Origin: a phage | NCBI GenBank assembly: GCA_024686575.1 | Contig: GCA_024686575.1_4863.1 | Direction: 5' to 3' (one strand) | Length of the DNA: 64,000 nucleotides | Shown here: positions 2,529 through 61,002 of the stretch, in pieces | Position numbering within the stretch: the stretch's first letter is position 1 | How the letters are laid out: each line of letters starts with the position of its first letter | Notes under the pieces: model-generated | Database searches by the model: none | What the model saw: the letters and a program-made list of their open reading frames with translations, nothing else | Told to the model about the DNA's origin: nothing | Translations under genes and position numbers: made by a program

Positions 2529-4829
2529 TTAGCCGCCAGCGCCTTCACCGCCAGTACCTGGCTGGGTAGCACCGCCGCCAACATCACCAGCATTACCACC
2601 GTCAGTACCGCCGGTACCGTTGGAAGTAGTAGTGACGTTGAACGCCAGTTTCTCTTCCACGAACTTGGTGATACCTTTAATCCAGATCAGACCAGTGATC
2701 GGGCAGTGGCAGATGTGCGCGTTACGAGGCTGTACTGCCAGCTCTTTGCTGGTAGCGCCGTTACGCTGGATGTTGATGTTGGTTACCATGATCGGAGACC
2801 AGAAGTGGTTACCCCAGTTCAGAACACAGTAAGAACCATCATCAGCGGTTGGAACTTTCAGAACCCACTGCAGGCGGCGAGTCCAGCTGCCGTCAGCTTC
2901 GTTCTTCACACGCCAGCGGTCATCGTTGGTGGTGATAACTTCGTACTCGTAGCGATCGCCCAGCAGACGCTGGTCACCCTGAACCAGCAGCAGCATTGCA
3001 GCAGTCGGTTCGTCAGTTGCGATAACAACTTTCGGCAGTGCGTTCGGGTCCGCAGTCAGCAGGCGCAGAGCCGGCATGAAGCGAGAGTCCTGGATAGCAC
3101 GAGTTACCTGGTCACCGATACGCTGTACCAGACCCTGACGGGCGTTGATGAGCGCATCTTTGGTATCCAGAGACTGGATCACTTTGTCCACTTCGTAGTC
3201 GCTTTCGCTGTACCACGGAGCAACCCAGTGACGGCCCAGGCCGCGGATAGCAGGTTTGTCCCACGGAGTGATCATGGACGCAGCTGCGTTCTTAACCGCT
3301 TCGGTGTAAGACAGAGTCTGAGTGATAGCCAGCATTTCGTTACGGATGTTAACCGCAGAAACGAGGTCGTCCAGACGTTCGGTGTCGTCGTATTCAACGC
3401 CAACCGGAGATTTGGTCATGATCGGAGAACCGTACTGCAGTTTGTAGTTCTCTTGTTCCCAAATCGGGTCGAGCAGAAGGCCCTGGGTTCTCCGGTTCTC
3501 GTTGGTACGAGTACCGTCGAAGCGCCAGCCCAGCAGCTCCAGTTTCAGGTTGTCGATGATGACTTTGCCGGTGCCGCTTTCGATATCAACAGCAGTACCA
3601 GTTGCGTCGTACAGACCTTCGATTTCCAGAGACGGTGCAGTCACGTCAACACGACCAGAGAACTGACCATTGGTGAACAGAGACATGCTGATGTTCATGG
3701 AATAACGAATGGTGTAATCGTTCTGTGCCAGAGCGGCCAGTGCCGGGATTTCAGCACCTTTCCAGTCCAGAGACTTGGCGTTCAGGGAGAACACAGTGCG
3801 ACGGAACTGCAGGACCAGCTCACGGCCATCACCTTCAGGAGGACGCTGGAAGGTAGCGAACTGCATGTCGCGTACGTTCAGTTTGATCAGCGCACCATCT
3901 TTCGCTTCTTCGGCCGGCTTACGCACAGACAGCAGCAGGCTACCCAGCGCTGCACCCGGTGCGATTTCGTCGGTTTCATCGTAACCTTCCTGCACGATAC
4001 CCGGATGGGCAGACAGCTGGAACAGGTTCAGACGACGCTCAGAGAAGCTCAGGTAGTTGGTCGGATACGCCGGCACACGACCCAGCTGAACGTTTTCGTT
4101 TTCGATGATGTCTTCGGATACGAAGAACTTCGCGTTCTCACCGGTTTCCATCACGTAAGGTACGATACGGATAGCATCGTCCTGCAGGACTTTGTGGTTA
4201 GACAGCGCGTTATGCAGCGGCTGACGGTTGTCTTCAACCACGTCTTTGGTCAGCAGGGCGTTCAGGATACCACGAGTTACAGTAGTAACTTTGGTACGAA
4301 CGGTGATCCCGACGTCGTTGGTGTCCACAGTGATGGTCGGGAACAGGGTTTCTGCAAACTTGGATTGAGTTTCCAGAGCACGCACGTTCAGCGTCCAGGT
4401 CAGACCCAGGTTTTTGTCCAGGTCTTTGTTGGTGTAGTATTCGGTTGCGACCAGCGGAGTTTTACCGTAGTCAGCAGCCAGGGATGCTGCACCAGAAATA
4501 GCGATCGGCATATAGCTGGCGTATTCCGGCTTCGCGCTCTCAGCAGCAACACGGGTCATGAAGTCATCTTCGTGACCGGCAGCAGCCAGAATCATCGCAG
4601 AAGCAACCTGAGCAGCGTGGCTCATGGTTTTGCCAGGGTTTACAGCTTCGTAGTGCTGCTGAGCAGTGTCACGCAGGTTGGTGAAGCCGGCAGCATTTTT
4701 ACGTACAGATTCGCCAACGGCTACGGTTTGCCATACGTCATTAGCGGAAGAGCCTGCCTTGGCAGCAGCGACCAGAGCATTGCCCTGCTGAACCAGCTGG
4801 TCCAGACTAGCGATACGGGTATCTTTCAT
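2529..4829 (-). CDS. large virion structural protein candidate (possibly major capsid protein)
   Basis: 766-aa ORF with ATG start, followed by a strong rho-independent terminator; size matches the roughly 750-aa major capsid proteins of phiKZ-like phages; Gly-rich C-terminal tail. Function inferred from size and context only. Confidence 0.55.
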   Translation of the reverse strand: MKDTRIASLDQLVQQGNALVAAAKAGSSANDVWQTVAVGESVRKNAAGFTNLRDTAQQHYEAVNPGKTMSHAAQVASAMILAAAGHEDDFMTRVAAESAKPEYASYMPIAISGAASLAADYGKTPLVATEYYTNKDLDKNLGLTWTLNVRALETQSKFAETLFPTITVDTNDVGITVRTKVTTVTRGILNALLTKDVVEDNRQPLHNALSNHKVLQDDAIRIVPYVMETGENAKFFVSEDIIENENVQLGRVPAYPTNYLSFSERRLNLFQLSAHPGIVQEGYDETDEIAPGAALGSLLLSVRKPAEEAKDGALIKLNVRDMQFATFQRPPEGDGRELVLQFRRTVFSLNAKSLDWKGAEIPALAALAQNDYTIRYSMNISMSLFTNGQFSGRVDVTAPSLEIEGLYDATGTAVDIESGTGKVIIDNLKLELLGWRFDGTRTNENRRTQGLLLDPIWEQENYKLQYGSPIMTKSPVGVEYDDTERLDDLVSAVNIRNEMLAITQTLSYTEAVKNAAASMITPWDKPAIRGLGRHWVAPWYSESDYEVDKVIQSLDTKDALINARQGLVQRIGDQVTRAIQDSRFMPALRLLTADPNALPKVVIATDEPTAAMLLLVQGDQRLLGDRYEYEVITTNDDRWRVKNEADGSWTRRLQWVLKVPTADDGSYCVLNWGNHFWSPIMVTNINIQRNGATSKELAVQPRNAHICHCPITGLIWIKGITKFVEEKLAFNVTTTSNGTGGTDGGNAGDVGGGATQPGTGGEGAGG

Positions 4830-8207: not shown

Positions 8208-8209
8208 TT

Positions 8210-8626: not shown

Positions 8627-8685
8627 TTTTCACGTTCCTTAGGCAAAAAATAATACCACCCGTAGGTGGTATTAAATTATCTATA

Positions 8686-8874
8686 CTACTTCTTCCCGAG
8701 TTCCCCACGGAACTTCGCCAGCTCTTCTTTCCAGTCCGGCTTCGGTAGTGCGCTTTTCGGCCCCACGATAAATGTGCGTTCTGAGGTTTGTGGATTCACC
8801 TCTACTGTTTCGTTATCTTCCACTTCACGAAGCATGATTCCGTTTTTACCATCGTAATTAACTAAAACGCCCAT
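8686..8874 (-). CDS. hypothetical small protein
   Basis: 62-aa ORF; its start overlaps the stop of the upstream small gene. Confidence 0.35.
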   Translation of the reverse strand: MGVLVNYDGKNGIMLREVEDNETVEVNPQTSERTFIVGPKSALPKPDWKEELAKFRGELGKK

Positions 8875-10238: not shown

Positions 10239-10281
10239 TGCAATATTTTCCTTAAGGTTACTTACGGGTCATACTAGATGA

Positions 10282-11595: not shown

Positions 11596-12134
11596 TAGCG
11601 ACCTCCTCGGGCTCTATAAGCGTACTCAATACGTTTCATAATCGTATCATTAAAACGGTGGAGTTTAGACTCCAGGCGGACCTGCCCAAATAACGACTGA
11701 ACACAGTCCGCCATCGTTGCCGTGGGTTTCTTGAAATACCCGTAGCGGTTAGCCACAGGAAACAGTTTCGAAGCCAGCACATTGAACTGACGCAACCCTT
11801 CGATAGGGACTTCCCGGTAAATCAGCGTCGGGTTCTCCAGATAGTTCAGCCAGTCCGCAAGGTGTTCCATAATCCACCCGTACACTTTAATCCCGTCATG
11901 CGGGTCGTGTACATCTAACGCACCACCGGTCGCTAAATACTCAGCAGCTTCTGAGGGGTGCAGATAGATAGGCTTCATGTTCAGTAACAACGCTTGTCGT
12001 TTCTTCGGGTCTTCTGGCAAGAACAATCCGTGTTCCTGACTGGCGTAGGTTGTGATGGTTGCGTATTCCGGTACCCGGAAGAACACCCACGCTTTAAACA
12101 GCATAAATGCTGCACTGCGCTTCTTCTCCGACAT
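11595..12134 (-). CDS. hypothetical protein
   Basis: 179-aa ORF in a tightly packed minus-strand run. Confidence 0.5.
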   Translation of the reverse strand: MSEKKRSAAFMLFKAWVFFRVPEYATITTYASQEHGLFLPEDPKKRQALLLNMKPIYLHPSEAAEYLATGGALDVHDPHDGIKVYGWIMEHLADWLNYLENPTLIYREVPIEGLRQFNVLASKLFPVANRYGYFKKPTATMADCVQSLFGQVRLESKLHRFNDTIMKRIEYAYRARGGR

Positions 12135-12136
12135 TA

Positions 12137-17846: not shown

Positions 17847-19106
17847 TTACTTAGACTTTTCGTACGCACCGATACCGGCGCTGATGTAGCCGTTAACGCC
17901 GGCGATCAGGTTTTTCTGGCCAGTTGCAACGCAACGTTCGGTCCAGGAGATGTACTGGTTCGCAACGGTGATTGCACGACGTGCAACACGGACGTTGGAA
18001 GTCAGTTCAGCGTTGTCGTCGATCTTCACGCCGTCGATACGTTTCAGCAGCGCCTCAATAGCCCGCTCGTACGATTCTTGAGCCTGGTTATTTTTGTGGT
18101 ACGCTTTCACGTTCTCTTCGACTGCTTTACCCAGCTGGTTGAAGAACGCAACCAGAGAAGACAGCGTCTGAGCAGACGGAGTAGAAACAGATTTTTCTAC
18201 GCTGCCTTCAGCATCGATAACGGTGAAGGAAGCTTCCAGGTCATCCCCGTTCACTTTCACGTCAGCTTTACCGATCTGGTTACCCAGCAGTTGAACTTCG
18301 CCCGCTTTGCCTGCAGTGGCTTTGTTAACCGCTGCTGCGAAGCCGCTGTTCAGTTTCCCGCCTTCAACTGCGCTGACCATGCTGGTTGCAGCTTTGACCA
18401 CTGCATCCTGCTCGCCGTAGATGCTGCCGATAGTAGACAGAACACCTTTCAGGACGTTGATGTCGTTACCGACGAACTTACCACCGGTGGTCAGGTTCTT
18501 AATGAACCCACCGCTAACGGTGTCTTTCTTCTGCTTGCCCAGACCACGCAGAGCCGCGTCATATTTCTTAGCGCGCGCCTGAATGGATTTACCCTGGTTG
18601 CTGAACTTGAGCCAGCGATCTTTGATTTTACGGCCTTGTTCTTTCAGCCAGTCGAAGATACGCTGCAGGAACGCTTTGATGTCGTCCCACAGTGATTCAC
18701 GAGCAACCTGACGGCGTTTACGTGCGCCGTAAGATTCCTGCGCAACGCTTACGCGGTGATCGAATGCCCAACGTTTACGGATAGATTCCTGCGCAACGTC
18801 CAGCTGCTCAGCAGCTTCGTCAGGCATATCTTCTTCCACTTCCATTGGCTCTTCGCCATCTTCGCCTTCGCCGTCAGCAGCGGCTTCAGCAGCATCAACT
18901 GCATCCAGCTGTGCATCAGTTTCGTCACCGTCTTCTGCCAGCACGTCTGCTTCTGCGTCCAGCTGGTCGATCGGTTTGGTGTCGTGCTCGATGTCAGCCA
19001 GAGTACCTTCCACGGACTCAGCCGGCAGCTCGATGCCATCTGGAACGACAGTGCCTGCGCCTTCGACAGATTCACGAGCGAGTTTACTTTTTACAAAGTT
19101 AGCCAT
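17847..19106 (-). CDS. paralog A of a tandem pair; candidate protease-processed head/internal protein
   Basis: 419 aa; N-terminus MANFVKSKLARESVE and C-terminus GYISAGIGAYEKSK shared with the adjacent gene; acidic Asp/Glu/Ala-rich N-terminal region with several A/S-x-E sites; terminator downstream. Confidence 0.6.
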   Translation of the reverse strand: MANFVKSKLARESVEGAGTVVPDGIELPAESVEGTLADIEHDTKPIDQLDAEADVLAEDGDETDAQLDAVDAAEAAADGEGEDGEEPMEVEEDMPDEAAEQLDVAQESIRKRWAFDHRVSVAQESYGARKRRQVARESLWDDIKAFLQRIFDWLKEQGRKIKDRWLKFSNQGKSIQARAKKYDAALRGLGKQKKDTVSGGFIKNLTTGGKFVGNDINVLKGVLSTIGSIYGEQDAVVKAATSMVSAVEGGKLNSGFAAAVNKATAGKAGEVQLLGNQIGKADVKVNGDDLEASFTVIDAEGSVEKSVSTPSAQTLSSLVAFFNQLGKAVEENVKAYHKNNQAQESYERAIEALLKRIDGVKIDDNAELTSNVRVARRAITVANQYISWTERCVATGQKNLIAGVNGYISAGIGAYEKSK

Positions 19107-19183: not shown

Positions 19184-20461
19184 TTATGCTTTAGACTTTT
19201 CGTACGCGCCAATACCAGCGCCGATGTAGCCGTTCAGGCCGCTGATAACAGTGTTACCAACGTGAGCCACAGCACGGTTCAGAGTCTGGTAGTTACGCAC
19301 AGCCTGGTCAGCTGCAGTGCGTGCATTACGCAGCGCTTCCCACTCGCCTTCGTCGTTGGATTTTTTCAGAGCGGCAGCAGCTTTGGCAGCAGCCTCTTCC
19401 AGTTTCTCAACGTCAGCGTCGTAGCTGCGGAAGTCTTGCAGGACTTTCTCGAAGCCTTTACCGATAACGTCCAGGGCAGACGCAGCAGATGCCAGTGCAG
19501 AAATAGCCGGAGTAGCGATTTCTTTCGTTTCAGAAACGTCACCCGTCGACAGGAAGGCCACTGCGGTGAATTCCTGACCGCCTGCCAGAGTTTTGGTGCC
19601 GGTCTGTACATAGGCGTTGCCTGGCAGTGCCAGAACTTTCTGACCGCCTTCGCCGTCTTCGAATTGCGGCAGTGCGCGCAGTTTCTTCGCAGCGGTACCA
19701 AACAGGGCAACGTCAACAGCGCCTTTAGCAGCGGTTGCGGTACCGTCTGAAGTTTTGGTGATCGCTACAGCAGAGTCAGCCGCCTGAGAGGACAGCTTGT
19801 TGATAGCATCTTTCGCTTTACCGCCGGTCAGCTCTTTCGCGATAGCGATAGAGTTGGCCACATCGAATTCACCTTCGATAGACAGTTTGCTAATAAAGCC
19901 ACCAGAAATGTTTTCTTTCTTCTGTTTGCCGAGCTTACGCAGCATCTCCTGGTAAGCTTTCGCACGTTTCTGCGCGGACTTACCAACGTTGATGTACTTC
20001 AGTTTCAGCTCTTTCGCTTTCGCGATAACTGCTTTACACAGTTCAACGAAGCGTTCGAACAGATCTTTCAGGGTTTCTTTCCAGCCTTCCTGAGCTGCTT
20101 TGGTCATGCCACGGCCACGGCGATAAGATTCGCGTGCCAGTTTGGTACGATCGATAGCCCAACGCTTACGGATAGATTCCTGCGCCACCTCGGTGTGAGC
20201 GATGGCTTCTTCAGGCATCTCTTCACCGTTTTCGATTTTTTCGTCAGCAGCGTCGATAGCAGCTTCGGTACGCTCGGTATCAGCAGCCAGAGTTTCCTGG
20301 TCACCATCGAGCTGTTCCAGCTGACCGTCGATAGACGCAACTTCTGCCAGCTGAACGTCGATGTTCTCTTCTGCCGGTTCAACGTTGCTCAGACCGTCGA
20401 TTACGTCGCCGGTAGCTTCAACGGACTCGCGGGCGAGTTTACTTTTTACAAAGTTTGCCAT
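19184..20461 (-). CDS. paralog B of a tandem pair; candidate protease-processed head/internal protein
   Basis: 425 aa; same N-terminal 15 aa and same C-terminal GYIGAGIGAYEKSK motif as paralog A; shared AQESIRKRWA motif; divergent middle. Confidence 0.6.
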   Translation of the reverse strand: MANFVKSKLARESVEATGDVIDGLSNVEPAEENIDVQLAEVASIDGQLEQLDGDQETLAADTERTEAAIDAADEKIENGEEMPEEAIAHTEVAQESIRKRWAIDRTKLARESYRRGRGMTKAAQEGWKETLKDLFERFVELCKAVIAKAKELKLKYINVGKSAQKRAKAYQEMLRKLGKQKKENISGGFISKLSIEGEFDVANSIAIAKELTGGKAKDAINKLSSQAADSAVAITKTSDGTATAAKGAVDVALFGTAAKKLRALPQFEDGEGGQKVLALPGNAYVQTGTKTLAGGQEFTAVAFLSTGDVSETKEIATPAISALASAASALDVIGKGFEKVLQDFRSYDADVEKLEEAAAKAAAALKKSNDEGEWEALRNARTAADQAVRNYQTLNRAVAHVGNTVISGLNGYIGAGIGAYEKSKA

Positions 20462-41748: not shown

Positions 41749-43854
41749 TTACAACTCAATTACCACAGCGGCTCCTAGGTCATCGTACAACGATGCCGGG
41801 ATTTTGTACTCGGTATAAAAACCAACGCGATCGATATTCCCCTGCTGTCCTTCAAACAACAACATCGGAATTGCCGAGCGCAAACTAATGAGCGTGTTGT
41901 GATCGACAAACCGTTTCCCTGTAGCGTTAGTAGAATCCTCACTGTCAAATCCTACTGCCGGGAACGGATTGGTTGGCGACTCTACACGAGATATCGCCAA
42001 CATAATCGCAATGTGCGTCATCGGTATACCACTCAGCTTACGCTGGATATACTTAAACGTGTCCATCAACGCATAAGTACACTGTTTCTCTGTAGCACCA
42101 CCCATTTCAACCAACGTCACCGGTTTCACACGACCTTGTTTCTTGTTCAGCTTCACAGTCGAGGCTGTGTTGATGATTTCCACAATGTCTTCGTTCTTAT
42201 CGGCAGCAATCGAACGGAGCTTGGTTTCTAAGCCGGCTACGAACTCCGCCATCGATTCAGAACGGTTGGTGTAGACCAGGACCGGGTGTTTCGGGTTCCA
42301 TCCTTTTAAGGGGATTTCTACCGTCTTCTTCTCGATACGAATGTTCGCTCGTTGTTTCAAGAAGTAGTGCAGGAACGGTTTAGAGAAGTTCCCACAAACA
42401 CCCATTCGCACATCGATAGAATCCGCAGCGATTATCTGCCCATCTTCTAAACGACGTTGGAAAGTTAAGTCGGTGATTTCTGGTAATGCCGTTTCATCAA
42501 TTGCATCGAGATCTTCATGATACGCAATCTGGCTCAGCTCCGAATAAACTTTGTCGGTAACAACCAACTCGTATTCTGACCAATTCCCACGCTGTGGTTT
42601 TGGCAGCAAGCACAACCCTTTCAGAGAGTTATGTTTGTATTCGGTCATATACTCACGCATACGTGGGGTGAGTACCAGGTTGAGCAGATAACGCAAGAAG
42701 TCAAGGTGCTTGGTAGAGAGAATTCCCTGTGTACCCTTTTCCGAGATGGACGTGGATGCCAGGTGACCTGGTGACGTACCTTCAGAGAGGTTATAAATCA
42801 AATCCCCCATACAGGTCGCACAGATGGACTGATTCGCCATCTCTTTACAGGTCATGGCACTACGGAAGACCAGCGGTTTGCCAACCAGGTCTGCGTATCC
42901 GCCTTTCTCAAATCGCAACCACGGACCATTATCGCCTTCTAAACGATAACGCATCCCCACCATCGCTTTATAGGCACGCTCATCCAGCTGCGTATCCTTA
43001 AACGTGTAGCGGTGTGCGTGTGTTGTACCGCAGTCGTCGTACGTGAAATACATCAGTACGTTTGCTGCCAGCTGCAGTTTACGTGAGGCGTATTCTGCTT
43101 CGGCAATCTTGTCAGTGTTGTACAGGTGGGAACGTGAAGTTGCACCAGATTCTTTCAAACGCGAAATAACCGAATGCATTCCGGTAAAGAAGCCTTCCCA
43201 CACCTGATTGGTGTATACACGTGAGTCAATTTCTGACGTTTTGCCGCGCACGAACGCTTGCAGTACCTGGTTCATCTTCACGGTACCGTCCAGTACCGAC
43301 ATTACGACTGGGTTATACCGCAGCGCAGGGTCTTTGAAGATTTTCTCGATAAGCTTATACGCTTCTTCAACCATATCCTGACCATCTTCATCGTAGCCAG
43401 TAGGATACTGCACTTCCCACTGACGGATGAGTTCGAAGTTCGGGTGGTCGTAGATCTCCATCATCGTATCAAAGTCGATTGTCGTACAATAGGACAGCAA
43501 GTTCTTCACTGTCATGTTGAACGCATCGGCGTAGACATGTTGACTCAGGATATAACGCGTTTCAGCAAGGTCGACACCTGCTTTACGGGCCAGTACCGCT
43601 GCTTCCGACATAAAGTCCAGATGCAGGTCATCTGTTGCTACCTGACCTGGACGATACGCCATGGTCGATGGAGTGGGCACCTGCGGATACAGACGCGACA
43701 CACCCCAATACGGCCAGCTGAGTTTGATGTGGCGACTAGACATTTCCAACGACTTACCATCGTCGAAAGTCACGTAATAACGCCCGCGTAGTTTCCACAC
43801 CTGATCAGAGTTAAGCATACGCAAATCACGTACGTGTACAGAACGACCCGCCAT
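41749..43854 (-). CDS. multisubunit RNA polymerase beta'-like subunit, C-terminal part
   Basis: 701 aa; STSISEKGTQGILSTKH resembles the beta' trigger loop (SIGEPGTQLTMRTFH); ATG overlaps the TAA of the upstream beta-like gene (TAATG). Confidence 0.6.
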   Translation of the reverse strand: MAGRSVHVRDLRMLNSDQVWKLRGRYYVTFDDGKSLEMSSRHIKLSWPYWGVSRLYPQVPTPSTMAYRPGQVATDDLHLDFMSEAAVLARKAGVDLAETRYILSQHVYADAFNMTVKNLLSYCTTIDFDTMMEIYDHPNFELIRQWEVQYPTGYDEDGQDMVEEAYKLIEKIFKDPALRYNPVVMSVLDGTVKMNQVLQAFVRGKTSEIDSRVYTNQVWEGFFTGMHSVISRLKESGATSRSHLYNTDKIAEAEYASRKLQLAANVLMYFTYDDCGTTHAHRYTFKDTQLDERAYKAMVGMRYRLEGDNGPWLRFEKGGYADLVGKPLVFRSAMTCKEMANQSICATCMGDLIYNLSEGTSPGHLASTSISEKGTQGILSTKHLDFLRYLLNLVLTPRMREYMTEYKHNSLKGLCLLPKPQRGNWSEYELVVTDKVYSELSQIAYHEDLDAIDETALPEITDLTFQRRLEDGQIIAADSIDVRMGVCGNFSKPFLHYFLKQRANIRIEKKTVEIPLKGWNPKHPVLVYTNRSESMAEFVAGLETKLRSIAADKNEDIVEIINTASTVKLNKKQGRVKPVTLVEMGGATEKQCTYALMDTFKYIQRKLSGIPMTHIAIMLAISRVESPTNPFPAVGFDSEDSTNATGKRFVDHNTLISLRSAIPMLLFEGQQGNIDRVGFYTEYKIPASLYDDLGAAVVIEL

Positions 43855-46091
43855 TATTTATCCTCCCGAATTGGACGCACTAATTCAAAACCTTCACAGC
43901 GATGGATGTTACGTATCATCCTGTCAATCTGCGAATCACCCATTGGCAGTTTCTTACGATCGACCAGCACCCCTGGATTGGTTGGTGTTGGCGAGTTATA
44001 CAGCCCCGTTACGATCGCACGGTGTACCGCAGGGTTATTAGCGCGGTCATGAGTTTCGGGGAAGTTGCCCGGACCAAAGCCGTCGGTAAGACGCTGCTCG
44101 GAAGGACCACCCCACTTCAACCCTTTCAGGTTAATCGGATATGAACCACGTCCTTGGTTGGATGCATCAATACAACCCAAATAGTTCGTGTACATCGACG
44201 AGATACTGGAGAACTCACGACCGGTTTTATCCAGGCGCAGAGTCTCTACCATGCCGACGTAAAACTGGTTCTTCGTCCACTCTTTCTCACCCTGATAGTT
44301 AGTAATCAGTAGCTTAGACTTGCGTGGTGCATACTCGCCTAGAGCACGGCAGATTTCTACCTGGGTAGCATTCAATTCGTGGGGAAGCCAGATACGAATC
44401 GTGAAGTCGTAAATCTCTTTAAAGAGTTCCAGACGTGACCCAGTATCCGGGTGACTGGCATTGAGATAGAATGTCCAGCGTGGGTTATAGCGATCGATAT
44501 AGTCCATCAGGATTTCCCAGGCTTCATCAACCTGGTTGGCGGCAAGTAAAGGTTTCAACCGCATCTTCAACTGCTCGGATGCAGCAGACCAATACATGTG
44601 GAACAGCGCAGCATAAGTCGAACGACGAATTACGGCGTTCATGGAACGAATGACATGCACACGTTCTCCGAACTCGTTAATCGGCATTTCTTCATCAGGC
44701 CGCACTGCGCCCACGATACCTTTTGTACCTGAACGGTCGGTGATTTTCGATGAGACGGTAACTGGGATTGGATAACGTACCACGATGCGTATCGTGTAAC
44801 TACCAATTGGGTCCCAGAGACCACGCTGAACCGGCTGCGCCAGTTTGTTTAACACGTTCTTATCAGCAGAACGGTTATACTCGCCTTTACGCATGGCTTC
44901 ATCGTATTCACGACCAATCTCTTCACGGAAGTCGTTATAGACTTCATACGTCTCAGAACAGAACGCCTTGTCAAGAATCTCAAACGCTTTCGGTGACCAG
45001 ACGATATTCTTGTCCTTGGACATCGCAAAATAGAACCGTACGATATCATTGTAAAAACGTTTCAAAGCGTTCGCGTAGTGATCTAACTCGCGTTTGTTCT
45101 CTTCGGTACATGCGATATTGTTAACACCACGATCGCATTTGGTTTCGTCCCGCCATACCTGAATATCAACGACACGAGAACCGGTACGTTCCATCTTTTC
45201 AAAGTCGCCAGCCAGTCGCGCTTTGTAATGCTCAGGGTCGGCATCAACATACTCACAACGGTCGAAGTGCGGAGAGACATGTTGTGTTTCACCTACGTGC
45301 GAGTCAATGGCTGCCCATAGCTTATCGAAACGGCGCGCGGCAATAACCAACCCATCATCACGAATTGCCTGTCCTTTATTGGGCAGGTACTGTGGTCGAC
45401 GAACGCCATCAATACCCGTTGTCCCATACGTATCAAGCAGGTACTCGTCGTCGCGCAAGGTAAAGTCGATTGCACGCAAACCATAAGCGTGCATCGCTTT
45501 CGCTGCAGTTTCGGAGATGGTGTACGAGTCCTCGATAATGTCCGGGTGCGACATCGTCACGGTGTGCAGGTTGACCCCATCGACAAACTCACCGTCTTTC
45601 TGTGCCGGCAGCACGGTAAGCATTTCATCTTTTTCCAGGTGCTGCGTCTGCCCGCGCAGCAACGCCTGAAGTTTCCCAGTAGCCTCTTTCTTAGACGAGA
45701 AAATGTTATCGTGGTTGGTGTAATACTTAATATCGATTACATCAATCATCACTTTGCGCTGGTTGGTTAAATCTGCGCGCGTGAAGAAGATAACATGTTG
45801 GAGCGGTTCGTGATCCCCTTCACGACCATAGCGTGCAAAAACAGCTGCACGAGTAACACCTTCTTTGGTTGTGTAACTGCACACGGTACCACTGTCTTCC
45901 ACGATATCGTTAAAACAATAATCGTGGTAGTTCACATCAGCGCCGGTAAAATGGATAGTCGGATCTGGATTGTCCAGTGGTACCGCCGACTTCATATGTC
46001 CACCCACCATTGAGGCACGTGCCCCAGATACGCCAGTGATATTCACCTCACGGTCAGCAACGCTTGACATGAGTTCGACTGGTGTTTTCAT
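43854..46091 (-). CDS. multisubunit RNA polymerase beta-like subunit, C-terminal part
   Basis: 745 aa; DRSGTKGIVGAVRPDEEMP resembles the beta GRHGNKGVVSKI..EDMP segment, with a downstream YVGMVETLRLDK (compare YMYMLKLNHLVDDK); AAAGGAG RBS; 15-mer motif 31 nt upstream. Confidence 0.7.
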   Translation of the reverse strand: MKTPVELMSSVADREVNITGVSGARASMVGGHMKSAVPLDNPDPTIHFTGADVNYHDYCFNDIVEDSGTVCSYTTKEGVTRAAVFARYGREGDHEPLQHVIFFTRADLTNQRKVMIDVIDIKYYTNHDNIFSSKKEATGKLQALLRGQTQHLEKDEMLTVLPAQKDGEFVDGVNLHTVTMSHPDIIEDSYTISETAAKAMHAYGLRAIDFTLRDDEYLLDTYGTTGIDGVRRPQYLPNKGQAIRDDGLVIAARRFDKLWAAIDSHVGETQHVSPHFDRCEYVDADPEHYKARLAGDFEKMERTGSRVVDIQVWRDETKCDRGVNNIACTEENKRELDHYANALKRFYNDIVRFYFAMSKDKNIVWSPKAFEILDKAFCSETYEVYNDFREEIGREYDEAMRKGEYNRSADKNVLNKLAQPVQRGLWDPIGSYTIRIVVRYPIPVTVSSKITDRSGTKGIVGAVRPDEEMPINEFGERVHVIRSMNAVIRRSTYAALFHMYWSAASEQLKMRLKPLLAANQVDEAWEILMDYIDRYNPRWTFYLNASHPDTGSRLELFKEIYDFTIRIWLPHELNATQVEICRALGEYAPRKSKLLITNYQGEKEWTKNQFYVGMVETLRLDKTGREFSSISSMYTNYLGCIDASNQGRGSYPINLKGLKWGGPSEQRLTDGFGPGNFPETHDRANNPAVHRAIVTGLYNSPTPTNPGVLVDRKKLPMGDSQIDRMIRNIHRCEGFELVRPIREDK

Positions 46092-47898: not shown

Positions 47899-49599
47899 TT
47901 AATCAATGAGACCGTTGCCGAGTCCGTTTCCGCCTATACCGCCTAAGCCACCACCCAGGTCAAGACCTCCAAGAGGATCTAAGCCACCTGTGTTAGTTGG
48001 AATGTTAGATAGCATTCGACCCCGGCCTTGGCCTTTCTCGAATTCTGTATAACCTTCTTCCACGGCTTTCAGCAGCGTTGCAGTGTTCTGTGCCAGCTCA
48101 CCAACGTATTTGAGATCGGTGGTGTTGCCGGTATGGAGACGGAATTGCATAAACGACGCGTAGGTGTAATATTCCAGCGGTTCGTCGTCGACACGGATTT
48201 CAATACGAGTAACGGTCCCCAACAATGCGGTGACCAGCATGTGACAGCGAATATGGTTATGTTTAGTAACCTGAACCATCGCTTCTTTCATGTTCTGCAA
48301 GAAACGACGACCTAATGCAGCAGGTAACTGATGATGTGTGATGCTGCTGACTGAGTTAGGAATAACTTCCAACGTAGGCTCTATCATGATATCCGTGTTA
48401 CGGTTATCAAAGACAAAGCTCACTTCGCCAATCAGGTTACGTGACATAATCGGCCCGATAGACATAGCCAGATCATACGCAACTAGACTACCCTGAGTAG
48501 AAAAGCCGTTACGTCCAATCCAGTGGTCGGTTTGGTTAACCAGCCCTGCACCCAACCCACGGCGACTTGCCAGCGCCAGCGATTCACGGATACATTCATC
48601 CAACCGCATTGGGTTGACAATCGCATTACGCAAATCAGCCAAACGGAACGTCGCCTTACTGGTTGCTTTCCAACCGCCAGATACATCAGACATCCCGTTC
48701 TGGAGTGCTTGACGCATCGCAGCAATCAGTTCGTGGTTGCTGTAGTTACGGATAACACCACGCTGCTTCAATTCAGATTCAACGCCGATGGAGTTATTAC
48801 CTGCAAAGAAGCTTTCCACGCTACCGAGTTCGGTATCTACCCCAGAGCTTGCCAGATACGCATTACTGATTGCAGATACGTAGTTTTCCGGACGCTGGAG
48901 TTGGGATACCATCAACTGTGGTGCAGAGCTACTGGTTGCGGATAGCACAGAGTCGCTCGTTGGAACGAACTTCTCACCGCTATTCATTTCAATACGTTTT
49001 ACCATATCCGCTGCTTTCGCGATCGAAATGATATCTACCGTACTTTCTGTTTGACCTTCAACAGACAGCGCTTTCGATAAAACGTAGTTATCCAGTAGAC
49101 GGAATGAGTCTGGGTTCAATGTTTTGCCGCCCAGGGCATCGTGTGTATACGTTGCCTGTAAGCCGTAGATGTCGTTAATGTACAACACCATATCGTCCGG
49201 CAGCAGGCTACCCAGGCTGGTTTCTGCCTGACTGGTATAACCGGAGACGATGTATTGCGTTTCCTGAGTGCGTGTTGCATTCAGAGGTTTAGCAATAAAC
49301 ACCGCCACGAAGTTAAAGATACCGGTATCACGTGATTCCCATTGGAACTGTACAGGACGATTGTCATCATCGGACACGTTGATGAATGGACGCTCAAAAC
49401 CGTTCTGGGTGCCATCGAAGCCCACGATGGCAGATAATGCTTCTTGATACTGCTGTGTTCCCACAGCTTTTTCCCCGCCCAGTTCAACCGCTGCTGCTAA
49501 GTCATCCAGTGCACCCGTCGATGCGTTAAAGCCGATGCGGCGACGAACTTGCTCTGGAACATCGTAGACCGGATACATCAGTAGATTTACAAGCTGCAT
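47899..49599 (-). CDS. hypothetical protein with Gly/Leu-rich C-terminal tail
   Basis: 566 aa; C-terminus GGLDPLGGLDLGGGLGGIGGNGLGNGLID. Confidence 0.55.
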   Translation of the reverse strand: MQLVNLLMYPVYDVPEQVRRRIGFNASTGALDDLAAAVELGGEKAVGTQQYQEALSAIVGFDGTQNGFERPFINVSDDDNRPVQFQWESRDTGIFNFVAVFIAKPLNATRTQETQYIVSGYTSQAETSLGSLLPDDMVLYINDIYGLQATYTHDALGGKTLNPDSFRLLDNYVLSKALSVEGQTESTVDIISIAKAADMVKRIEMNSGEKFVPTSDSVLSATSSSAPQLMVSQLQRPENYVSAISNAYLASSGVDTELGSVESFFAGNNSIGVESELKQRGVIRNYSNHELIAAMRQALQNGMSDVSGGWKATSKATFRLADLRNAIVNPMRLDECIRESLALASRRGLGAGLVNQTDHWIGRNGFSTQGSLVAYDLAMSIGPIMSRNLIGEVSFVFDNRNTDIMIEPTLEVIPNSVSSITHHQLPAALGRRFLQNMKEAMVQVTKHNHIRCHMLVTALLGTVTRIEIRVDDEPLEYYTYASFMQFRLHTGNTTDLKYVGELAQNTATLLKAVEEGYTEFEKGQGRGRMLSNIPTNTGGLDPLGGLDLGGGLGGIGGNGLGNGLID

Positions 49600-49611
49600 T
49601 TTAAATACTCC

Positions 49612-51246
49612 TTAAGAATTAAACCATTCAACTTCTTCTAACTTGCGACGTGCATTCAACACCATAAACTCCGCCAGGCTATTGTGCAGTGACAAGTGAG
49701 GTATATAGTTTGGCTGATCCGTCTCACACTTCAGCAGCGCAGCTGCTTCTGGTGTAGCCCTGAGATGGAACAGATACGGGTTGATGTGATCCTTGTGTAA
49801 CAAGGTCAGTGATTCCCGTGGTGTAGATTGCGGTTCGAGATTACGCGGGTTGCGATACTCCTGAAGATAATATCTATCTAAATCTGCTTTGAGTTCAGAT
49901 CGAATTGGGTCGGCTGCATAACCGGCAGACATCTCAGAACGCACCATATTGCAACTTAACAGTTGCGCAACGTCATACATTCCATAATTGAGATAAGTTG
50001 CCTGTGCTAACGCCATGCCGTAGCGAAACGCTTCTGGTCCACATTCGGTATACGTCTTATAATGCGCGCTACGATGGAGTGCTAATGCGACTAACCATTC
50101 GTGGAGCGTATAGACAGGACCGTCGTGTGTTGCCAGTTGCGAATCAATCAATAACTTAACATCTGCTGGAGCGGCATTATCCAGGCGCATTGTTTTCAAG
50201 AAAGAGCGGTATTCTTTAAATACGTACTCGGTACGGACGTATTCTTTCATCTGGGCAGGAGAACGTGCCTGCACCAAATCCATGGCGTTTATCTTACCCT
50301 TTTCGCCATTGAATATCACACTTTCTGGATGCGCTTTTAACAGCACCGGCTGGTTAGAGATTTTGTTTGCAAAACCTGTTTCAATCTCTTGTTTAACCAG
50401 AAAATACATGCCGGTGACGATATTGTTGTTAACCATGATTTCAACCGGTAATTCACCACCGACTTCACGGACAGCCAACAATTTAATAATAGCATACGCC
50501 AGGATATAATCTTCCATCATATCCGTGCCATAGCCCCGCACAGTAGCCAGTACCGACAAACTGGTGCTGTTCGTACCTTTGTTTGCCAGTTCTTTTTCTA
50601 CCTTTTCCATCACTGTCTGTAGGAACCCACGCAGTTTCGGAATAGCAGGTAAAGACATGACTTCTGTGTCTTGAAGCATCTCCAGACAGTATGTCAGATT
50701 GTACACCATTTTCCGATGTGTTTCGATTGGCAAGTTCTTACCTATCGGGAACGTCCCCATGGTGAGGAACACCGGAATATACGGTTTAATCATCAGGACC
50801 AGTATCAACAACTCGTAATAGTCCGGACGAATGTACGTCATCGCTTCCGGATAATTACTGTTCATTTCATCGTGCGTATCTTCCATGTTCTGCGGAATCC
50901 ACAGCTTATCGATGGGATACAGCTTACGATACACTTCGGCCTTGTGGAACTTCGCAATCGTCTGCACAATCTTCGGCATGTGCTTACGCTGCGTTTCCGT
51001 CGATTCGTTTGCCAGCTCGTCCAGCATCAGATACGCCATGAACAGTTCATCTTGTTCGTCTGGCGTTAAATAATCCCACACGCGTTGTAATTCCATGAAG
51101 AGAATGTTGTCGCGTGCAATCTGTTTACCTTTAACAGTGATGTAGTCGGGTGCGTTGTTATCCTTCCGATAACGTAAGCCAATAAATGAGACCTCTTGAC
51201 CATGATGCTCGATTGTCATCCGGTCTTTAATCTTCGTAATTTTCAT
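49612..51246 (-). CDS. hypothetical protein
   Basis: 544 aa, ATG with GGAG RBS; 15-mer motif 35 nt upstream; a second copy of the motif lies inside the 3' part of this ORF. Confidence 0.55.
   Translation of the reverse strand: MKITKIKDRMTIEHHGQEVSFIGLRYRKDNNAPDYITVKGKQIARDNILFMELQRVWDYLTPDEQDELFMAYLMLDELANESTETQRKHMPKIVQTIAKFHKAEVYRKLYPIDKLWIPQNMEDTHDEMNSNYPEAMTYIRPDYYELLILVLMIKPYIPVFLTMGTFPIGKNLPIETHRKMVYNLTYCLEMLQDTEVMSLPAIPKLRGFLQTVMEKVEKELANKGTNSTSLSVLATVRGYGTDMMEDYILAYAIIKLLAVREVGGELPVEIMVNNNIVTGMYFLVKQEIETGFANKISNQPVLLKAHPESVIFNGEKGKINAMDLVQARSPAQMKEYVRTEYVFKEYRSFLKTMRLDNAAPADVKLLIDSQLATHDGPVYTLHEWLVALALHRSAHYKTYTECGPEAFRYGMALAQATYLNYGMYDVAQLLSCNMVRSEMSAGYAADPIRSELKADLDRYYLQEYRNPRNLEPQSTPRESLTLLHKDHINPYLFHLRATPEAAALLKCETDQPNYIPHLSLHNSLAEFMVLNARRKLEEVEWFNS
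49865..49879 (-). promoter_or_regulatory. conserved 15-mer AGATAATATCTATCT, copy 4 (inside a coding region)
   Basis: Exact 15-mer embedded in the 3' part of CDS 49612..51246, 266 nt upstream of the next gene start (49599). Confidence 0.4.
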
Positions 51247-56196: not shown

Positions 56197-57792
56197 TTAG
56201 CCCATCACCGCTTCCAACGGAATGCCTTCTTCATCGTCCTCATCTGTCTCAATAAGGAACTGGTTCTGCATACTGATTAGCTCGTTATGTAAAACCATGC
56301 CGTGTTCTACGCGGTCCACATCAGTAGAAGACATAAAGCCGTTATCTGGACGGAATTGGAGCGCCAACTTCATCTCAGTTTCATCGACTGGCAAACGTAC
56401 CTGGAACTGGTCACCATCGAAATCTCCATTTGCCATCTTTATCACACGGTCAGAGATACGCAGCGAACACTGGTTAACATCGGTAACAACTTCGTCGATG
56501 AACAGCGTCTGAATAGACAACTGTACCAGCGTCGGGTTACGCAGCGGTATGACCATGATCCCAAGACCACCTGGGGATTCGCGAATCAGTTCTTTAAAGA
56601 TTTCGTCTACAAGCGGGTCATACTGCATTGCCGCTTTTGCAACGATACGTTCACATTGCCGTGACGAATAACCCCGTCGTAGCAATTTATTCTCGATGTG
56701 GGTCGACATCAACCCAACCATCCAACGCCATGGTGCTTTTAACTTCCAGGCATCGTGTGGTTCTGAGATAGGTGAGATGGTTGCGCGACCACCGAACGGA
56801 ATATGGGTGGAACCCAATTTCGCGCGATAGTCACCCGGTTTACCTTCCATAGACTCACGACGGAAGTCCATGTGGAAGTACGTTAACTGACGGTTCGCTT
56901 TCAAAGCGCGACTAATCAGAAAACGCGGTTCGATCGCTTTACGCCGCGTATAAAGTAACGCGATATTTTTCACCGCATCAATAGCACCCGTGAACACTGG
57001 GTCTACCATGACACCACGACGACCTTCCTCAGTAACGATAAGTTTAGAGGAGATTAGCGGTAAGTGTCTTGGGAAGAATGCATGGCGTTGCGTTTCGAAT
57101 AGCTCCTTCCATTGTAAACGTAAGCGTTCGCCTTCAGCGGCGTTATGCCGATTAGGTGCGAAGATTTCCTTCCAGGCTTCTGGCGTGGTAAGGATGTTAA
57201 AGATACTAACGTGGTTATCAACCAGATTGCGCAAGCCACGAACGAAACCATGTTCTTCCAATACACGTTTCACAGCATGTGCGCGTTTACCGTCTGGTTC
57301 TTCTATAAGGTAATACGGGTCAATCATCCACATCATCAAGTCATTACCGCGTTCGATAGTGACCTTGTTACGTTCAAACTTCTTCAACTTGCTATTAAAG
57401 AAAGCATTGAACATTGCCCAGAATCGTGGGTTGACGAAGTTACCCATTTCATCAGGTGCACGTAACCATACATCGGATTCAATTCGATGTTCAGTTACAA
57501 CATAGCCACACGTCGGACACTTACAACCGAGATTGTAACGATGCGCGATCGGTGCCGGACAATCCAAACTACAAATCGGTGCAGAGTTCAGTTCTTCGTC
57601 AACGATTCTGTTCTGTACCATGCGATCGATAAGTTCAGCAACCTCGATCGCATCCCCGTTAACAGCGACATCGTTAATAATAGTGGGTGGTTTAATACCT
57701 TTGGCAGCAGCTTCTATTTGCAAATCGGACAAATAGTTATCCTGACTAACCAATCGGCCGGATATTCCGTAGAATTTTGGTACCTTTCTCAC
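56197..57792 (-). CDS. multisubunit RNA polymerase beta'-like subunit, N-terminal part
   Basis: 531 aa; zinc-finger-like CSLDCPAPIAHRYNLGCKCPTCGYV and catalytic-motif-like NGDFDGDQ (canonical NADFDGD); GTG start with GAGG RBS. Confidence 0.8.
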   Translation of the reverse strand: MRKVPKFYGISGRLVSQDNYLSDLQIEAAAKGIKPPTIINDVAVNGDAIEVAELIDRMVQNRIVDEELNSAPICSLDCPAPIAHRYNLGCKCPTCGYVVTEHRIESDVWLRAPDEMGNFVNPRFWAMFNAFFNSKLKKFERNKVTIERGNDLMMWMIDPYYLIEEPDGKRAHAVKRVLEEHGFVRGLRNLVDNHVSIFNILTTPEAWKEIFAPNRHNAAEGERLRLQWKELFETQRHAFFPRHLPLISSKLIVTEEGRRGVMVDPVFTGAIDAVKNIALLYTRRKAIEPRFLISRALKANRQLTYFHMDFRRESMEGKPGDYRAKLGSTHIPFGGRATISPISEPHDAWKLKAPWRWMVGLMSTHIENKLLRRGYSSRQCERIVAKAAMQYDPLVDEIFKELIRESPGGLGIMVIPLRNPTLVQLSIQTLFIDEVVTDVNQCSLRISDRVIKMANGDFDGDQFQVRLPVDETEMKLALQFRPDNGFMSSTDVDRVEHGMVLHNELISMQNQFLIETDEDDEEGIPLEAVMG

Positions 57793-57805: not shown

Positions 57806-57845
57806 ACAAAAAAAGAGGGAAGGACGGAGGCGTTAGCCCCCGTCC
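57806..57845 (-). terminator. terminator-like stem-loop
   Basis: Imperfect hairpin GGACGGAGG...CCCCCGTCC preceded on the plus strand by an A-run; downstream of the 617-aa gene. Confidence 0.45.
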
Positions 57846-57874: not shown

Positions 57875-59728
57875 TTACAGTTTGAAGTTGCTCAGAGACA
57901 CGCCCAGACCGAAATCGGAACCGCTTGCAGACAGGCCGTTGCCAGACAGCGTGAAGTCTTCCCCACCGTTGTTGAAGAACAGGGAGGTCGCCATCGTGTT
58001 GTAGGCATTTACACCAGTCATAGACCAGGTGCAGTTGTTACGGACGAAGTCCAGCAGGCATTTACCGAAGATCGGGTTGATAGCCATATCCAGAGATTCA
58101 CCGGTAGCTTGCGGTGCTTTGGATGCGAACAGAGAAGCGGCCAGTTTCAGCATGTAGATACGCTGCTGACGCTCGTTCAGTTCACGGTGGCTGTAGGACT
58201 GTGCGTTCAGGTAGCTATAGACGTCGTTCGCGTTATCACCCAGTTTGGTAACAACGGAAATCAGGTCCATATCCTGGAAGCTGCGTTTCTGTGCAGTACC
58301 GGTGTAAACACCGGAAACAGTCGGTACGGCTGCTTTCACGATGTGGCTGCAATGGATGGTACCATTGAAGGCATCGCCCAGCTGTGCTTTCAGTGCAGAA
58401 GCAAATACTGCAGTGAAGCTGGTCGCTGCAACAACTTCGCCGTTCTGATCACGCGGGGACATGGAATTCAGAATAGCGAGCAGCTGTTTCAGAGAGTTGT
58501 CGTAACCGACCGCAATTTCAGACAGCATAGTAGACAGACCACCCAGGCCGTTACCGGCACGATGGCTAACTACCAGTGCTGCTTCACGCGGTGCGAACAT
58601 ATCCAGGCAACCTTCGATAGCTTCACGGCTACCGTCGATTTTGGATACATCAGGACGAGCGTCAGCACCCCAGGACAGGTATTCTGCCACACGGGAGAAC
58701 TTGCGATCTTGTTTGTTCAGGCGTTTCACAAACAGGTCACGCCAGCCACCGATTGCCGCGATTTCTGCAAATGCAGCCAGCAGCAGCAGTTGACGTTCAT
58801 ACGGTGCCATTGCACCTTCAGTTTGAGAATCGACCAGACTTACTACGATTTCAGCCTGCAGCTGTTTCAGGTCGTAGACGCCGTTAACGACAGGCTTCTG
58901 ACCGGTGAAACGCATATTGACGAAACCGGTACCGGATACACGCGGATACACCTGTACCTGATTGGTGTCCAGCAGAGTCGGAGTGGCATCGGTTACGTTG
59001 CTTGGGCTGTGCTCAACGGTGATTGCGAAATCAGCACGTTGTGCGTGGCCGTTAGCATCCACAACCGCGCCATCTTCCAGCGGCATTACTGAGGCCTGAT
59101 AACGGTCATGCTTACGCAGGTTCAGTGTACCCAGGTAGCCTGCGATACGACCGAAGATTCCCATCATCATCTGACCCATCAGGGTACGTGCCCACTCAGC
59201 ATCCAGAACTTTACCCAAGTCTGGTACGGAGTTGATGATCATGAAGTTCGCATTGGTCAGACCATGCGCTTCCATGATGTTTTTCTGTACTACTGCCAGC
59301 ACGTCTTTGTTGAACAGTTCAGTGATGGTGTAGTAGTCTTCCTGGCCGTTGTTGGTGGTTTCTTTCAGACGCAGAGACTGACCGCGTTCAAAGAAGATAA
59401 TACCGTACAGCCAGTGGCCCTGCCATTGGCCTGCGACGTACGCCGCGGAACCCATTTCGTTACCCACGCCGACGATGGTGCCCCAGCGGAATGCGTTGAG
59501 GTATTCGTTGCTTTTCTTCAGCTCATCCAGGAGGTTGGTGAAGTGCATTGCATAAGTGCTGATGTTGCGGATGCCAAATGCGTTATCGAATTGGCTGACA
59601 GTAGAAGTACCCGGCACAGCAGTTTGCACTTTTACAGTCTCGTTGCCCAGACCGCCCAGTGGTGCGGTGTCTTGAGTCTGAGTGTTGTTCTGCTGAGCGT
59701 TGTTGTTAGAGTCAACGATTTTTACCAT
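57875..59728 (-). CDS. abundant-protein candidate (nuclear-shell-like or major structural protein); function unassigned
   Basis: 617 aa; ATG with AAGGA RBS; two copies of the 15-mer motif upstream (59774-59788, 59868-59882) and a terminator-like hairpin downstream; Gly/Ser-rich C-terminus. Confidence 0.6.
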   Translation of the reverse strand: MVKIVDSNNNAQQNNTQTQDTAPLGGLGNETVKVQTAVPGTSTVSQFDNAFGIRNISTYAMHFTNLLDELKKSNEYLNAFRWGTIVGVGNEMGSAAYVAGQWQGHWLYGIIFFERGQSLRLKETTNNGQEDYYTITELFNKDVLAVVQKNIMEAHGLTNANFMIINSVPDLGKVLDAEWARTLMGQMMMGIFGRIAGYLGTLNLRKHDRYQASVMPLEDGAVVDANGHAQRADFAITVEHSPSNVTDATPTLLDTNQVQVYPRVSGTGFVNMRFTGQKPVVNGVYDLKQLQAEIVVSLVDSQTEGAMAPYERQLLLLAAFAEIAAIGGWRDLFVKRLNKQDRKFSRVAEYLSWGADARPDVSKIDGSREAIEGCLDMFAPREAALVVSHRAGNGLGGLSTMLSEIAVGYDNSLKQLLAILNSMSPRDQNGEVVAATSFTAVFASALKAQLGDAFNGTIHCSHIVKAAVPTVSGVYTGTAQKRSFQDMDLISVVTKLGDNANDVYSYLNAQSYSHRELNERQQRIYMLKLAASLFASKAPQATGESLDMAINPIFGKCLLDFVRNNCTWSMTGVNAYNTMATSLFFNNGGEDFTLSGNGLSASGSDFGLGVSLSNFKL

Positions 59729-59773
59729 TTTAAATATTCCTTAATAGTGATTGCAATCATAGTTCGGTTCGCA

Positions 59774-59788
59774 GAGATAATATCTGCC
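59774..59788 (-). promoter_or_regulatory. 15-mer variant AGATAATATCTGCCT, copy 6
   Basis: Two mismatches; 46 nt upstream of the 617-aa gene start (59728). Confidence 0.45.
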
Positions 59789-59867
59789 TGTAATTTCATG
59801 GAATGCAAGTATGCCGTCGCTTACTTACAAGGCACATAGTCCAGACATTTCTCAGGAACTGTCACAT

Positions 59868-59882
59868 AGATAATATCAATCT
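59868..59882 (-). promoter_or_regulatory. 15-mer variant AGATAATATCAATCT, copy 7
   Basis: Two mismatches; second copy in the same intergenic region, also about 50 nt upstream of the + gene start at 59935. Confidence 0.4.
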
Positions 59883-59934
59883 GAGATATTTTTGACTGTG
59901 ACTGACTTCCTATGTGGAATCTAAGGAGTCTGCC

Positions 59935-61002
59935 ATGTTCAGCCAAGCCGAGTTAAACCAAGTGGCCATAAAGGGTCACAGCACGGACCCCTCCGCTATA
60001 ACATTAGCGGCTCACGTAAAAAACAACAGCCAGCGTATACGCAACTACTTCGAACAGCTTAATCGCAGTGCTGGTAATGGCCATTTGTTGCAACAGGTGT
60101 TGTCTGCCATCGGCTATGCCGGTGAACCAGAGTACGAAGACATCGAATGGGCTTGCCGTCGCAAGCTTGTTCAGATCGGTAACGCCTTACGCTTAACGTC
60201 TGTTGGTGAGTACGGTCAAATCTTTAATAGCAAGTTTATCCAGGGCCAAGATGAGGTAATCTCTCTCGTAGCCCGCCCAGTAAATCCAGACCTTTCGTTC
60301 CGCGACTACACCCCCGCCCGTTACCTCTACCATGAGTATACCAACCTCAATTGGAAGTTCGGTGACGGACGGCCCCGAGGTGTTACGGTGATCGAAATCA
60401 ACCTGGTTGCTTTGCTTTGGCAATATGTCAAAGGTCAGCAGCACTACAGTCGCGGCACCGAACCTATTGCCACACCTGTGTATCTCCAACGACATGTGAT
60501 CTCTCGCATGTTGCCGAGCTACATGGATATCGCCTTTGTAAATATACATCGTGCGATAGCCTTCGGGAAAGAGATTGAACCGGATGAAACGTTACGTGTC
60601 ATTCCTGTTCCGCCGCTTCAAGCTTTAGCTGTGAAGCACGCAAAAGGCATCCGTAGTAAACTACTGGCTGCCAACCCGTTACCGGGACAAGTCTTAAACA
60701 ACATCCCATTGTTCTTCCAACATCCTGGTGAAGAAGGCCATACAGCACTGGAACTGATTGTCTTTCGAGAACCAGGTCAAACACTGCAGAACACCTGGCA
60801 CCAGAACATGGTGAACTGGTACTGGGCACTGTTTTGTCTTCAATACAACCAGGGGAATATGGAGAAACACAAACGTACGATGTTGGTTGATTTGGCGCGT
60901 TATGTGGACTCTAAAGTCCTCACACGTTTGACCAAATCCTTCTATAACTTTATCCAACGCGATTTGATTATCCCGTTGACGACAGAGCTAGAAGAAAAAT
61001 AA
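59935..61002 (+). CDS. hypothetical protein
   Basis: Track ORF starts at 59914; the ATG at 59935 (MFSQAELNQ...) is preceded by AAGGAG; strong terminator at 61055-61088. Confidence 0.5.
   Translation: MFSQAELNQVAIKGHSTDPSAITLAAHVKNNSQRIRNYFEQLNRSAGNGHLLQQVLSAIGYAGEPEYEDIEWACRRKLVQIGNALRLTSVGEYGQIFNSKFIQGQDEVISLVARPVNPDLSFRDYTPARYLYHEYTNLNWKFGDGRPRGVTVIEINLVALLWQYVKGQQHYSRGTEPIATPVYLQRHVISRMLPSYMDIAFVNIHRAIAFGKEIEPDETLRVIPVPPLQALAVKHAKGIRSKLLAANPLPGQVLNNIPLFFQHPGEEGHTALELIVFREPGQTLQNTWHQNMVNWYWALFCLQYNQGNMEKHKRTMLVDLARYVDSKVLTRLTKSFYNFIQRDLIIPLTTELEEK

Follow-up and report, generated by a model that had tools for sequence, protein, structure and literature searches.

Identity of the gene

The open reading frame on the minus strand at 57875..59728 is almost certainly the gene of chimallin (ChmA) in an SPN3US-type Salmonella jumbo phage (genus Seoulvirus, family Chimalliviridae). 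Chimallin defines the nucleus-forming jumbo phages, whose protein shell shields the phage DNA from host defences that attack DNA, such as CRISPR-Cas and restriction enzymes. The identification of chmA is already published, because Laughlin et al. 2022 listed the homologue and Prichard et al. 2025 worked on the orthologue of Erwinia phage Asesino; what we report is a known gene correctly called and not a discovery. The gene in our window (the whole stretch of 64,000 nucleotides that was analysed) is thus the chimallin of the SPN3US clade, listed as a homologue in 2022 and represented by a 64%-identical orthologue localised in 2025. The reading frame has the position and the 617 codons for amino acids that the first-pass annotation had given, with an ATG start and a TAA stop at 57877-57875. 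The gene and its translation signal are the following:

57875..59728, minus strand: chmA coding sequence including the stop codon, 617 aa, orthologue of SPN3US gp22 / RefSeq ACQ60_gp244
59738..59742, minus strand: ribosome-binding site AAGGA, 9 nt before the chmA ATG, with AAGG invariant in five phages

The 9 kb around chmA showed 98.9% nucleotide identity to Salmonella phage SPN3US. The protein was 100% identical to ULF48371.1 of phage SaP7 and 99.8% identical to SPN3US_0022, which is the same protein as RefSeq ACQ60_gp244 and YP_009153316.1. A total of 64 phage records matched the protein, and 'hypothetical protein' was the annotation in all 40 of the matches listed. The cluster of identical proteins (P0001, P0028-P0031) includes an entry of a Salmonella enterica serovar Derby assembly (XI41_21145), therefore the phage also occurs inside bacterial genome assemblies. 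Several entries of SPFM phages were matched by the family profile piecemeal, in many short segments that BLAST covered poorly, and this points to assemblies full of frameshifts.

The numbering of the SPN3US genes calls for caution. Actually, this phage has two mirror-image gene numberings, and the chimallin is ACQ60_gp244 in RefSeq and SPN3US_0022 (gp22) in GenBank. The 'gp244' of the SPN3US literature is the C-terminal subunit of the virion RNA polymerase beta', a 240-aa virion protein, which by its position next to the head protease is YP_009153538.1 = ACQ60_gp022 (gene at 8024-8746 of locus L008, NC_027402.1 220023-220745). In a 2025 preprint (10.1101/2024.12.31.630880) the SPN3US chimallin is given as YP_009153538, and this looks like a mix-up of the two numberings.

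Evidence for the chimallin fold

Direct sequence searches did not link the protein to chimallin. The Pfam search gave nothing relevant, the only match being a sub-threshold one to FliC_D2 (E 0.056), and among the PHROGs only a family of unknown function was matched. Neither phmmer with the single protein nor the 27-sequence family profile of the first round found any match among the PDB sequences at E<=10. The Phikzvirus chimallin family, in its local version PF25677.1, did not match the protein at E<=1. Precomputed PF25677.3 matches are recorded for homologues that are 48-66% identical to it, and P0050, a distant relative added to the enlarged profile described below, reached a PF25677 score of 35.4 against a cut-off of 27. 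Since the model takes its name from the phiKZ-type members, the miss may be read as a limit of sensitivity.

Since these searches showed no link, the assignment rests on predicted structure and on one further profile round. We modelled the protein with AlphaFold2 on the family alignment (pLDDT 76, pTM 0.78); residues 1-53 and 578-617 were disordered, with pLDDT below 50. When this model was compared with the PDB by Foldseek, the nine best matches were all chimallin/PhuN chains, from Goslar, 201phi2-1 and phiPA3 (E 6e-21 to 1e-15, target-normalised TM 0.65-0.71, identity 12-14%), and the tenth match had only E 0.08. The two-domain core fold of chimallin, an alpha/beta N-terminal domain followed by a GNAT-like C-terminal domain, was present in the model. 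The comparison with viral predicted structures gave 19 significant matches, of which 17 were full-length (590-691 aa, TM 0.57-0.85), and the named ones came from phages of Pseudomonas, Ralstonia, Vibrio, Aeromonas, Klebsiella and Erwinia. Furthermore, we enlarged the family profile with distant relatives taken from a profile search of 1.8 billion representative proteins. The enlarged profile matched phiPA3 PhuN with E 9.3e-17 and 201phi2-1 chimallin with E 6e-5, nearly end to end in both cases. Ordinary sequence tools therefore miss the link between chmA and chimallin, and structure comparison or an iterated profile is needed.

The genome context also fits Chimalliviridae, with RNA polymerase subunit genes at 56197..57792 and at 43854..46091. 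Regarding the literature, Laughlin et al. 2022 described 'gp244' of SPN3US as a diverged homologue of chimallin, with only 10% identity to the protein of 201phi2-1, and their Supplementary Table 7 gives YP_009153316.1 as its accession, which is the protein studied here. Tetragonal (square-lattice) sheets have been seen in SPN3US lysates (PMC7552025) and were attributed to chimallin by Laughlin 2022. Prichard et al. 2025 found that GFP-tagged Asesino gp039 forms a ring enclosing the phage DNA (PMC11724907). The first-pass annotation had hesitated between the nuclear shell protein and a major structural protein, and had named profile or structure comparison with ChmA and with capsid folds as one way to check. 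In that comparison chimallin was matched and a capsid fold was absent. Fold, iterated sequence profile, synteny and literature all bear out the chimallin option.

Promoter motifs upstream of chmA

Two exact copies of GATATTATCT lie upstream of chmA on its coding (minus) strand, in agreement with the two promoter-like motifs that had been noticed beforehand. The elements of this region are:

59775..59784, minus strand: proximal GATATTATCT copy, 3' end 46 nt before the chmA ATG
59813..59820, minus strand: GCGACGGC block between the two promoter copies, invariant in the five-phage alignment
59868..59877, minus strand: distal GATATTATCT copy in the same orientation, 139 nt before the chmA ATG and followed by a conserved GTGA(C/G)-N-GTTCC block

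The motif was far more frequent than expected by chance. With one mismatch allowed, the window contained 17 matches where 2.6 were expected, and 17 was not reached in any of 100 shuffles. Exact copies numbered seven. The minus strand carried every one of them, the plus strand none, and six of the seven fell in the non-coding 5% of the window (P ~1e-7). A longer form, AGATAGATATTATCT, is common to five of the seven. The 9-nt core of the motif, GATA-T-TATC, is a palindrome but for its central base. In addition to chmA, the genes preceded by the motif are the one for an RNA polymerase subunit at 43854..46091 and three of unknown function, and at the other intergenic sites its distance to the listed start was 15-46 nt. 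The remaining exact copy (49865-49874) lies inside a 544-aa reading frame (49612..51246), 265 nt upstream of the next gene (47899..49599), and may be an internal promoter.

Both copies before chmA hold their position in the phages SPAsTU, Asesino, Huxley and Caitlin, whose ChmA proteins are 49-78% identical to ours. Counted from the start of the ATATTATC/TATTATC core, the copies in these phages lie about 55 and 145-150 nt before the ATG. The whole intergenic region between chmA and the divergent gene (59729-59934) had a mean column identity of 78% across genera, which is unusually high. By eye we also saw in the alignment an imperfect inverted repeat, GGAA..GTCAC / GTGAC..GTTCC, that brackets the distal copy. 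It showed no covariation, and a repeat search of the region did not report it, giving only two other weak pairs (75-79% complementary).

A scan for sigma-70 promoters stayed at the chance level, with 3 sites against 4.6 expected, therefore the chmA motifs are not promoters of the host type. The virion polymerases of jumbo phages use early promoters that are specific to each phage and consist of a highly conserved AT-rich motif about 10 nt long, which lies upstream of early operons and is centred near -10 (PMC7598289). From this likeness, GATATTATCT would belong to the class of early promoters read by the virion RNA polymerase. The proximal start site would then lie a few nucleotides downstream, near a conserved G(T/C)GAAC, and the 5' UTR would measure about 40 nt. 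The papers retrieved from the literature with the motif sequence were all unrelated, and no transcript maps for the early transcription signals of this clade were found in the literature searched.

The distal copy (59868-59877) might serve the divergent gene, whose ATG is at 59935 on the plus strand, instead of being a second chmA promoter. The near-palindromic GATA-T-TATC core could act in that direction. Moreover, the copy is 57 nt from the divergent ATG, a distance like the 15-46 nt seen at intergenic sites elsewhere, whereas 139 nt separate it from the chmA ATG, and no other motif is available to the divergent gene. Nevertheless, all seven motif sites have T as the central base when read on the minus strand, the distal copy carries the flanks of the minus-strand family (CAGAT upstream, GTGA downstream), and no plus-oriented motif precedes a plus-strand gene anywhere in the window, the divergent gene included. 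We consider this assignment unlikely and keep the distal copy as a probable second chmA promoter. The divergent gene itself is the orthologue of SPN3US gp21 (59935-61002, plus strand; 355 aa, PHROG 3938, no Pfam match), and it adjoins chmA in all five phages.

Terminator-like element and downstream polymerase gene

A hairpin follows the chmA stop codon, and a polymerase subunit gene comes shortly after it:

57808..57845, minus strand: terminator-like element, with a 10-bp G+C-rich stem, a UAAC loop, a UUCCCUC spacer and U7
56197..57792, minus strand: beta'1 subunit of the non-virion RNA polymerase (nvRNAP), with the NGDFDGD catalytic motif, downstream neighbour of chmA

The hairpin (57845-57822) has the stem GGACGGGGGC/GCCUCCGUCC around the UAAC loop, and after the spacer the U7 run occupies 57814-57808. 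An 82-nt stretch holding the hairpin folds at -28.2 kcal/mol (z = -2.5). In the five-phage comparison, compensatory double changes were seen at 4 of the 11 pairs of the stem, and CUCUUUUUUUG did not vary. This covariation, together with the invariant part, indicates that the terminator-like element is under selection. A simple terminator scan did not report the hairpin, because the U-run starts 7 nt after the stem. This distance is unusual for an intrinsic terminator. The terminator-like hairpin predicted by the first-pass annotation thus holds as a conserved stem with U7, although its spacing is atypical.

The nvRNAP beta'1 gene begins only 15 nt beyond the U-tract, with a GAGG ribosome-binding site and no promoter motif of its own, and the next GATATTATCT copy beyond chmA in the direction of transcription is at 51281. 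The order of chmA followed by the nvRNAP beta'1 gene was kept in all the relatives examined, and in Asesino gp040, the gene next to gp039, is named nvRNAP beta'1 (PMC11724907). Therefore, nvRNAP beta'1 is probably reached by read-through, and with this gene so close behind and lacking its own motif, the hairpin more likely lowers transcription than ends it, that is, it would act by partial termination (attenuation). The claim that chmA forms a stand-alone transcription unit holds partly: the gene has its own promoter motifs and a conserved hairpin, but the unit does not appear to close before the polymerase gene.

The window and SPN3US both have an uninterrupted nvRNAP beta'1 gene (531 aa). 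In SaP7 (10108-12936 of locus L002) the gene is annotated as two pieces, and about 1.4 kb between them hold a 288-aa reading frame, which suggests an intron or a homing-endonuclease insertion.

Expression and association with proheads

The codon usage of chmA is among the most biased of the window. Its fraction of optimal codons is 0.786 and its Nc 34.9, the third place among 44 reading frames of >=150 aa. The gene of the major head protein stands just ahead (0.826), whereas most reading frames are near 0.55. The same extreme host-optimal bias (Fop 0.78-0.83) appears in 2529-4829, which is the major head protein gene, in 17847-19106 and in 19184-20461; the last two are adjacent, encode proteins of about 420 aa each and presumably give very abundant products. 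SPN3US gp22 has been described as 'abundant in infected cells' (PMC7552025). High expression of the chmA product, as anticipated from the first reading, is thus supported by codon usage and by the published abundance of gp22.

[quoted passage not shown] In such mutant particles gp22 reached spectral counts similar to those of the major capsid protein, and did so even when two gradients had been run (PMC7411985). However, the chmA model is a mixed alpha/beta globular protein and not a helical scaffold, the Asesino orthologue localises as a shell round the phage DNA, and chmA sits in an early-type gene context. The SPN3US protease motif is AXE, and the only AXE site of the protein (residues 370-372) lies inside a predicted helix of the folded domain, with none in the tails. 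[quoted passage not shown] Its presence in prohead preparations can be explained by lattice sheets that co-sediment with the proheads. We therefore regard a scaffold or core role as very improbable, and the older proposal can be set aside in favour of the shell protein. In view of the capsid-like abundance of gp22 in twice-purified protease-null preparations, proheads could stay bound to the shell lattice until the prohead protease acts, which would amount to a protease-dependent release of capsids at the phage nucleus. Cleavage by the prohead protease at E590 was also considered and dropped, as this residue is only 52% conserved and the protease motif is a different one.

Protein architecture

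Four regions can be distinguished in the protein from the predicted disorder and the mean column conservation:

59600..59728, minus strand: residues 1-43, N-terminal tail rich in N, Q and T, predicted disordered, conservation 0.37
59564..59599, minus strand: residues 44-55 (SQFDNAFGIRNI), conserved island on the border of the disordered N-terminal region, conservation 0.65
57998..59563, minus strand: residues 56-577, folded two-domain core, conservation 0.69
57878..57997, minus strand: residues 578-617, Gly-rich C-terminal tail, predicted disordered, conservation 0.65 and thus core-like

In the model, the alpha/beta N-terminal domain would extend to about residue 200, with the GNAT-like domain after it, and the boundary is approximate. 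D48 and A50 are nearly invariant in the island; in the C-terminal tail F584, G588 and G596 are invariant, and L594, G598 and L608 nearly so. The N-terminal segment (NTS) of 201phi2-1 chimallin comprises residues 48-61, and the roles of the C-terminal segments (CTS) have been described as well (PMC9365700). By comparison, residues 44-55 are a candidate N-terminal docking segment equivalent to this NTS, and residues 578-617 are candidates for the CTS1/CTS2 segments that link tetramers. The conservation of both stretches at a core-like level, which residues 1-43 do not share, is consistent with docking by N- and C-terminal segments.

The most conserved segment of the protein is H389-R-A-G-N-G-L-G-G397. 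We take it to resemble the cofactor loop of GNAT enzymes, and it may line the groove that receives the tail of the neighbouring protomer instead of being a cofactor loop. The GNAT-like domain as a still active acyltransferase, or as a cofactor-binding enzyme, is very improbable: this resemblance would be in its favour, but the published chimallin structures are without the AtaT active-site residues and their groove binds CTS1 of the neighbouring protomer (PMC9365700), in the aligned phiKZ-type chimallin sequences only R-x-G is kept, and no Pfam acetyltransferase family matched the protein.

Finally, a major capsid or other major virion structural protein, which the size of about 600 aa, the strong codon bias and the own regulatory signals might suggest, is refuted, because the major head protein is encoded by a separate 766-aa gene at 2529..4829 (PHROG 3231, E 1e-297) and the chmA protein had neither an HK97-type fold among its structure matches nor a match to a major head protein family.

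Proposed course of events

Taking the chimallin identification together with the regulatory signals, we propose the following model. The RNA polymerase injected with the virion would transcribe chmA early, from one or both copies of the AT-rich GATATTATCT promoter; the motifs and their conservation were computed here, and the promoter class and start sites are what we infer from them. The strong ribosome-binding site and the host-optimal codons, a bias likewise computed here, would give a very high yield of chimallin, in line with the abundance of gp22 taken from the literature. The conserved hairpin and the U-tract after the stop codon, for which we computed the covariation, would lower transcription into nvRNAP beta'1, so that far more shell protein than polymerase might be made. 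One speculative idea is that a conserved control unit, made up of the near-palindromic promoters in tandem, the invariant GCGACGGC block and a leaky terminator, adjusts how much shell protein is made relative to nvRNAP.

Regarding the protein, each protomer would consist of the N-terminal alpha/beta domain and of a GNAT-like C-terminal domain that has no known enzyme activity. The reading frame, the fold and the profile homology were established here, and the particular tail residues that dock are a proposal. The protomers would form tetramers via the N-terminal docking segment, and the two C-terminal segments, on flexible linkers, would join the tetramers into a square lattice presumably one protein thick, for which the lattice sheets of SPN3US provide published support. 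This lattice would enclose the replicating phage DNA, around which a GFP ring was reported for Asesino, and exclude host nucleases. That chimallin is more than a passive shell in this clade, which lacks PhuZ, for instance by retaining proheads until the protease acts, is an idea we hold to be rather improbable.

The layout of promoters, terminator and read-through is conserved, and it gives testable coordinates for the early transcription signals of the clade.

Comparison with known systems

SPN3US gp22 is the same gene in a close variant, with essentially no difference from the chmA described here. ChmA of Erwinia phage Asesino (gp039) is 64% identical and agrees in gene order and in the arrangement of promoters and terminator. 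Compared with the characterised chimallins (201phi2-1 gp105, Goslar gp189, phiPA3 gp53 and phiKZ gp54), the protein has only 12-14% identity to the solved ones, and its C-terminal tail, with 40 residues, is shorter and Gly-rich. The period reported for the SPN3US sheets is 13.5 nm, against 11.5 nm for Goslar.

The fold resemblances beyond the chimallins are those already published, namely a remote one of the N-terminal domain to E. faecalis EF_1977 and a remote one of the C-terminal domain to the GNAT tRNA-acetylating toxins (AtaT/TacT). As for the promoters, those of the phiKZ-like phages are likewise conserved, AT-rich, about 10 nt long, specific to a phage group and located upstream of presumed early genes. 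However, the motif before chmA has a sequence specific to the SPN3US/Erwinia clade, is near-palindromic and occurs in tandem.
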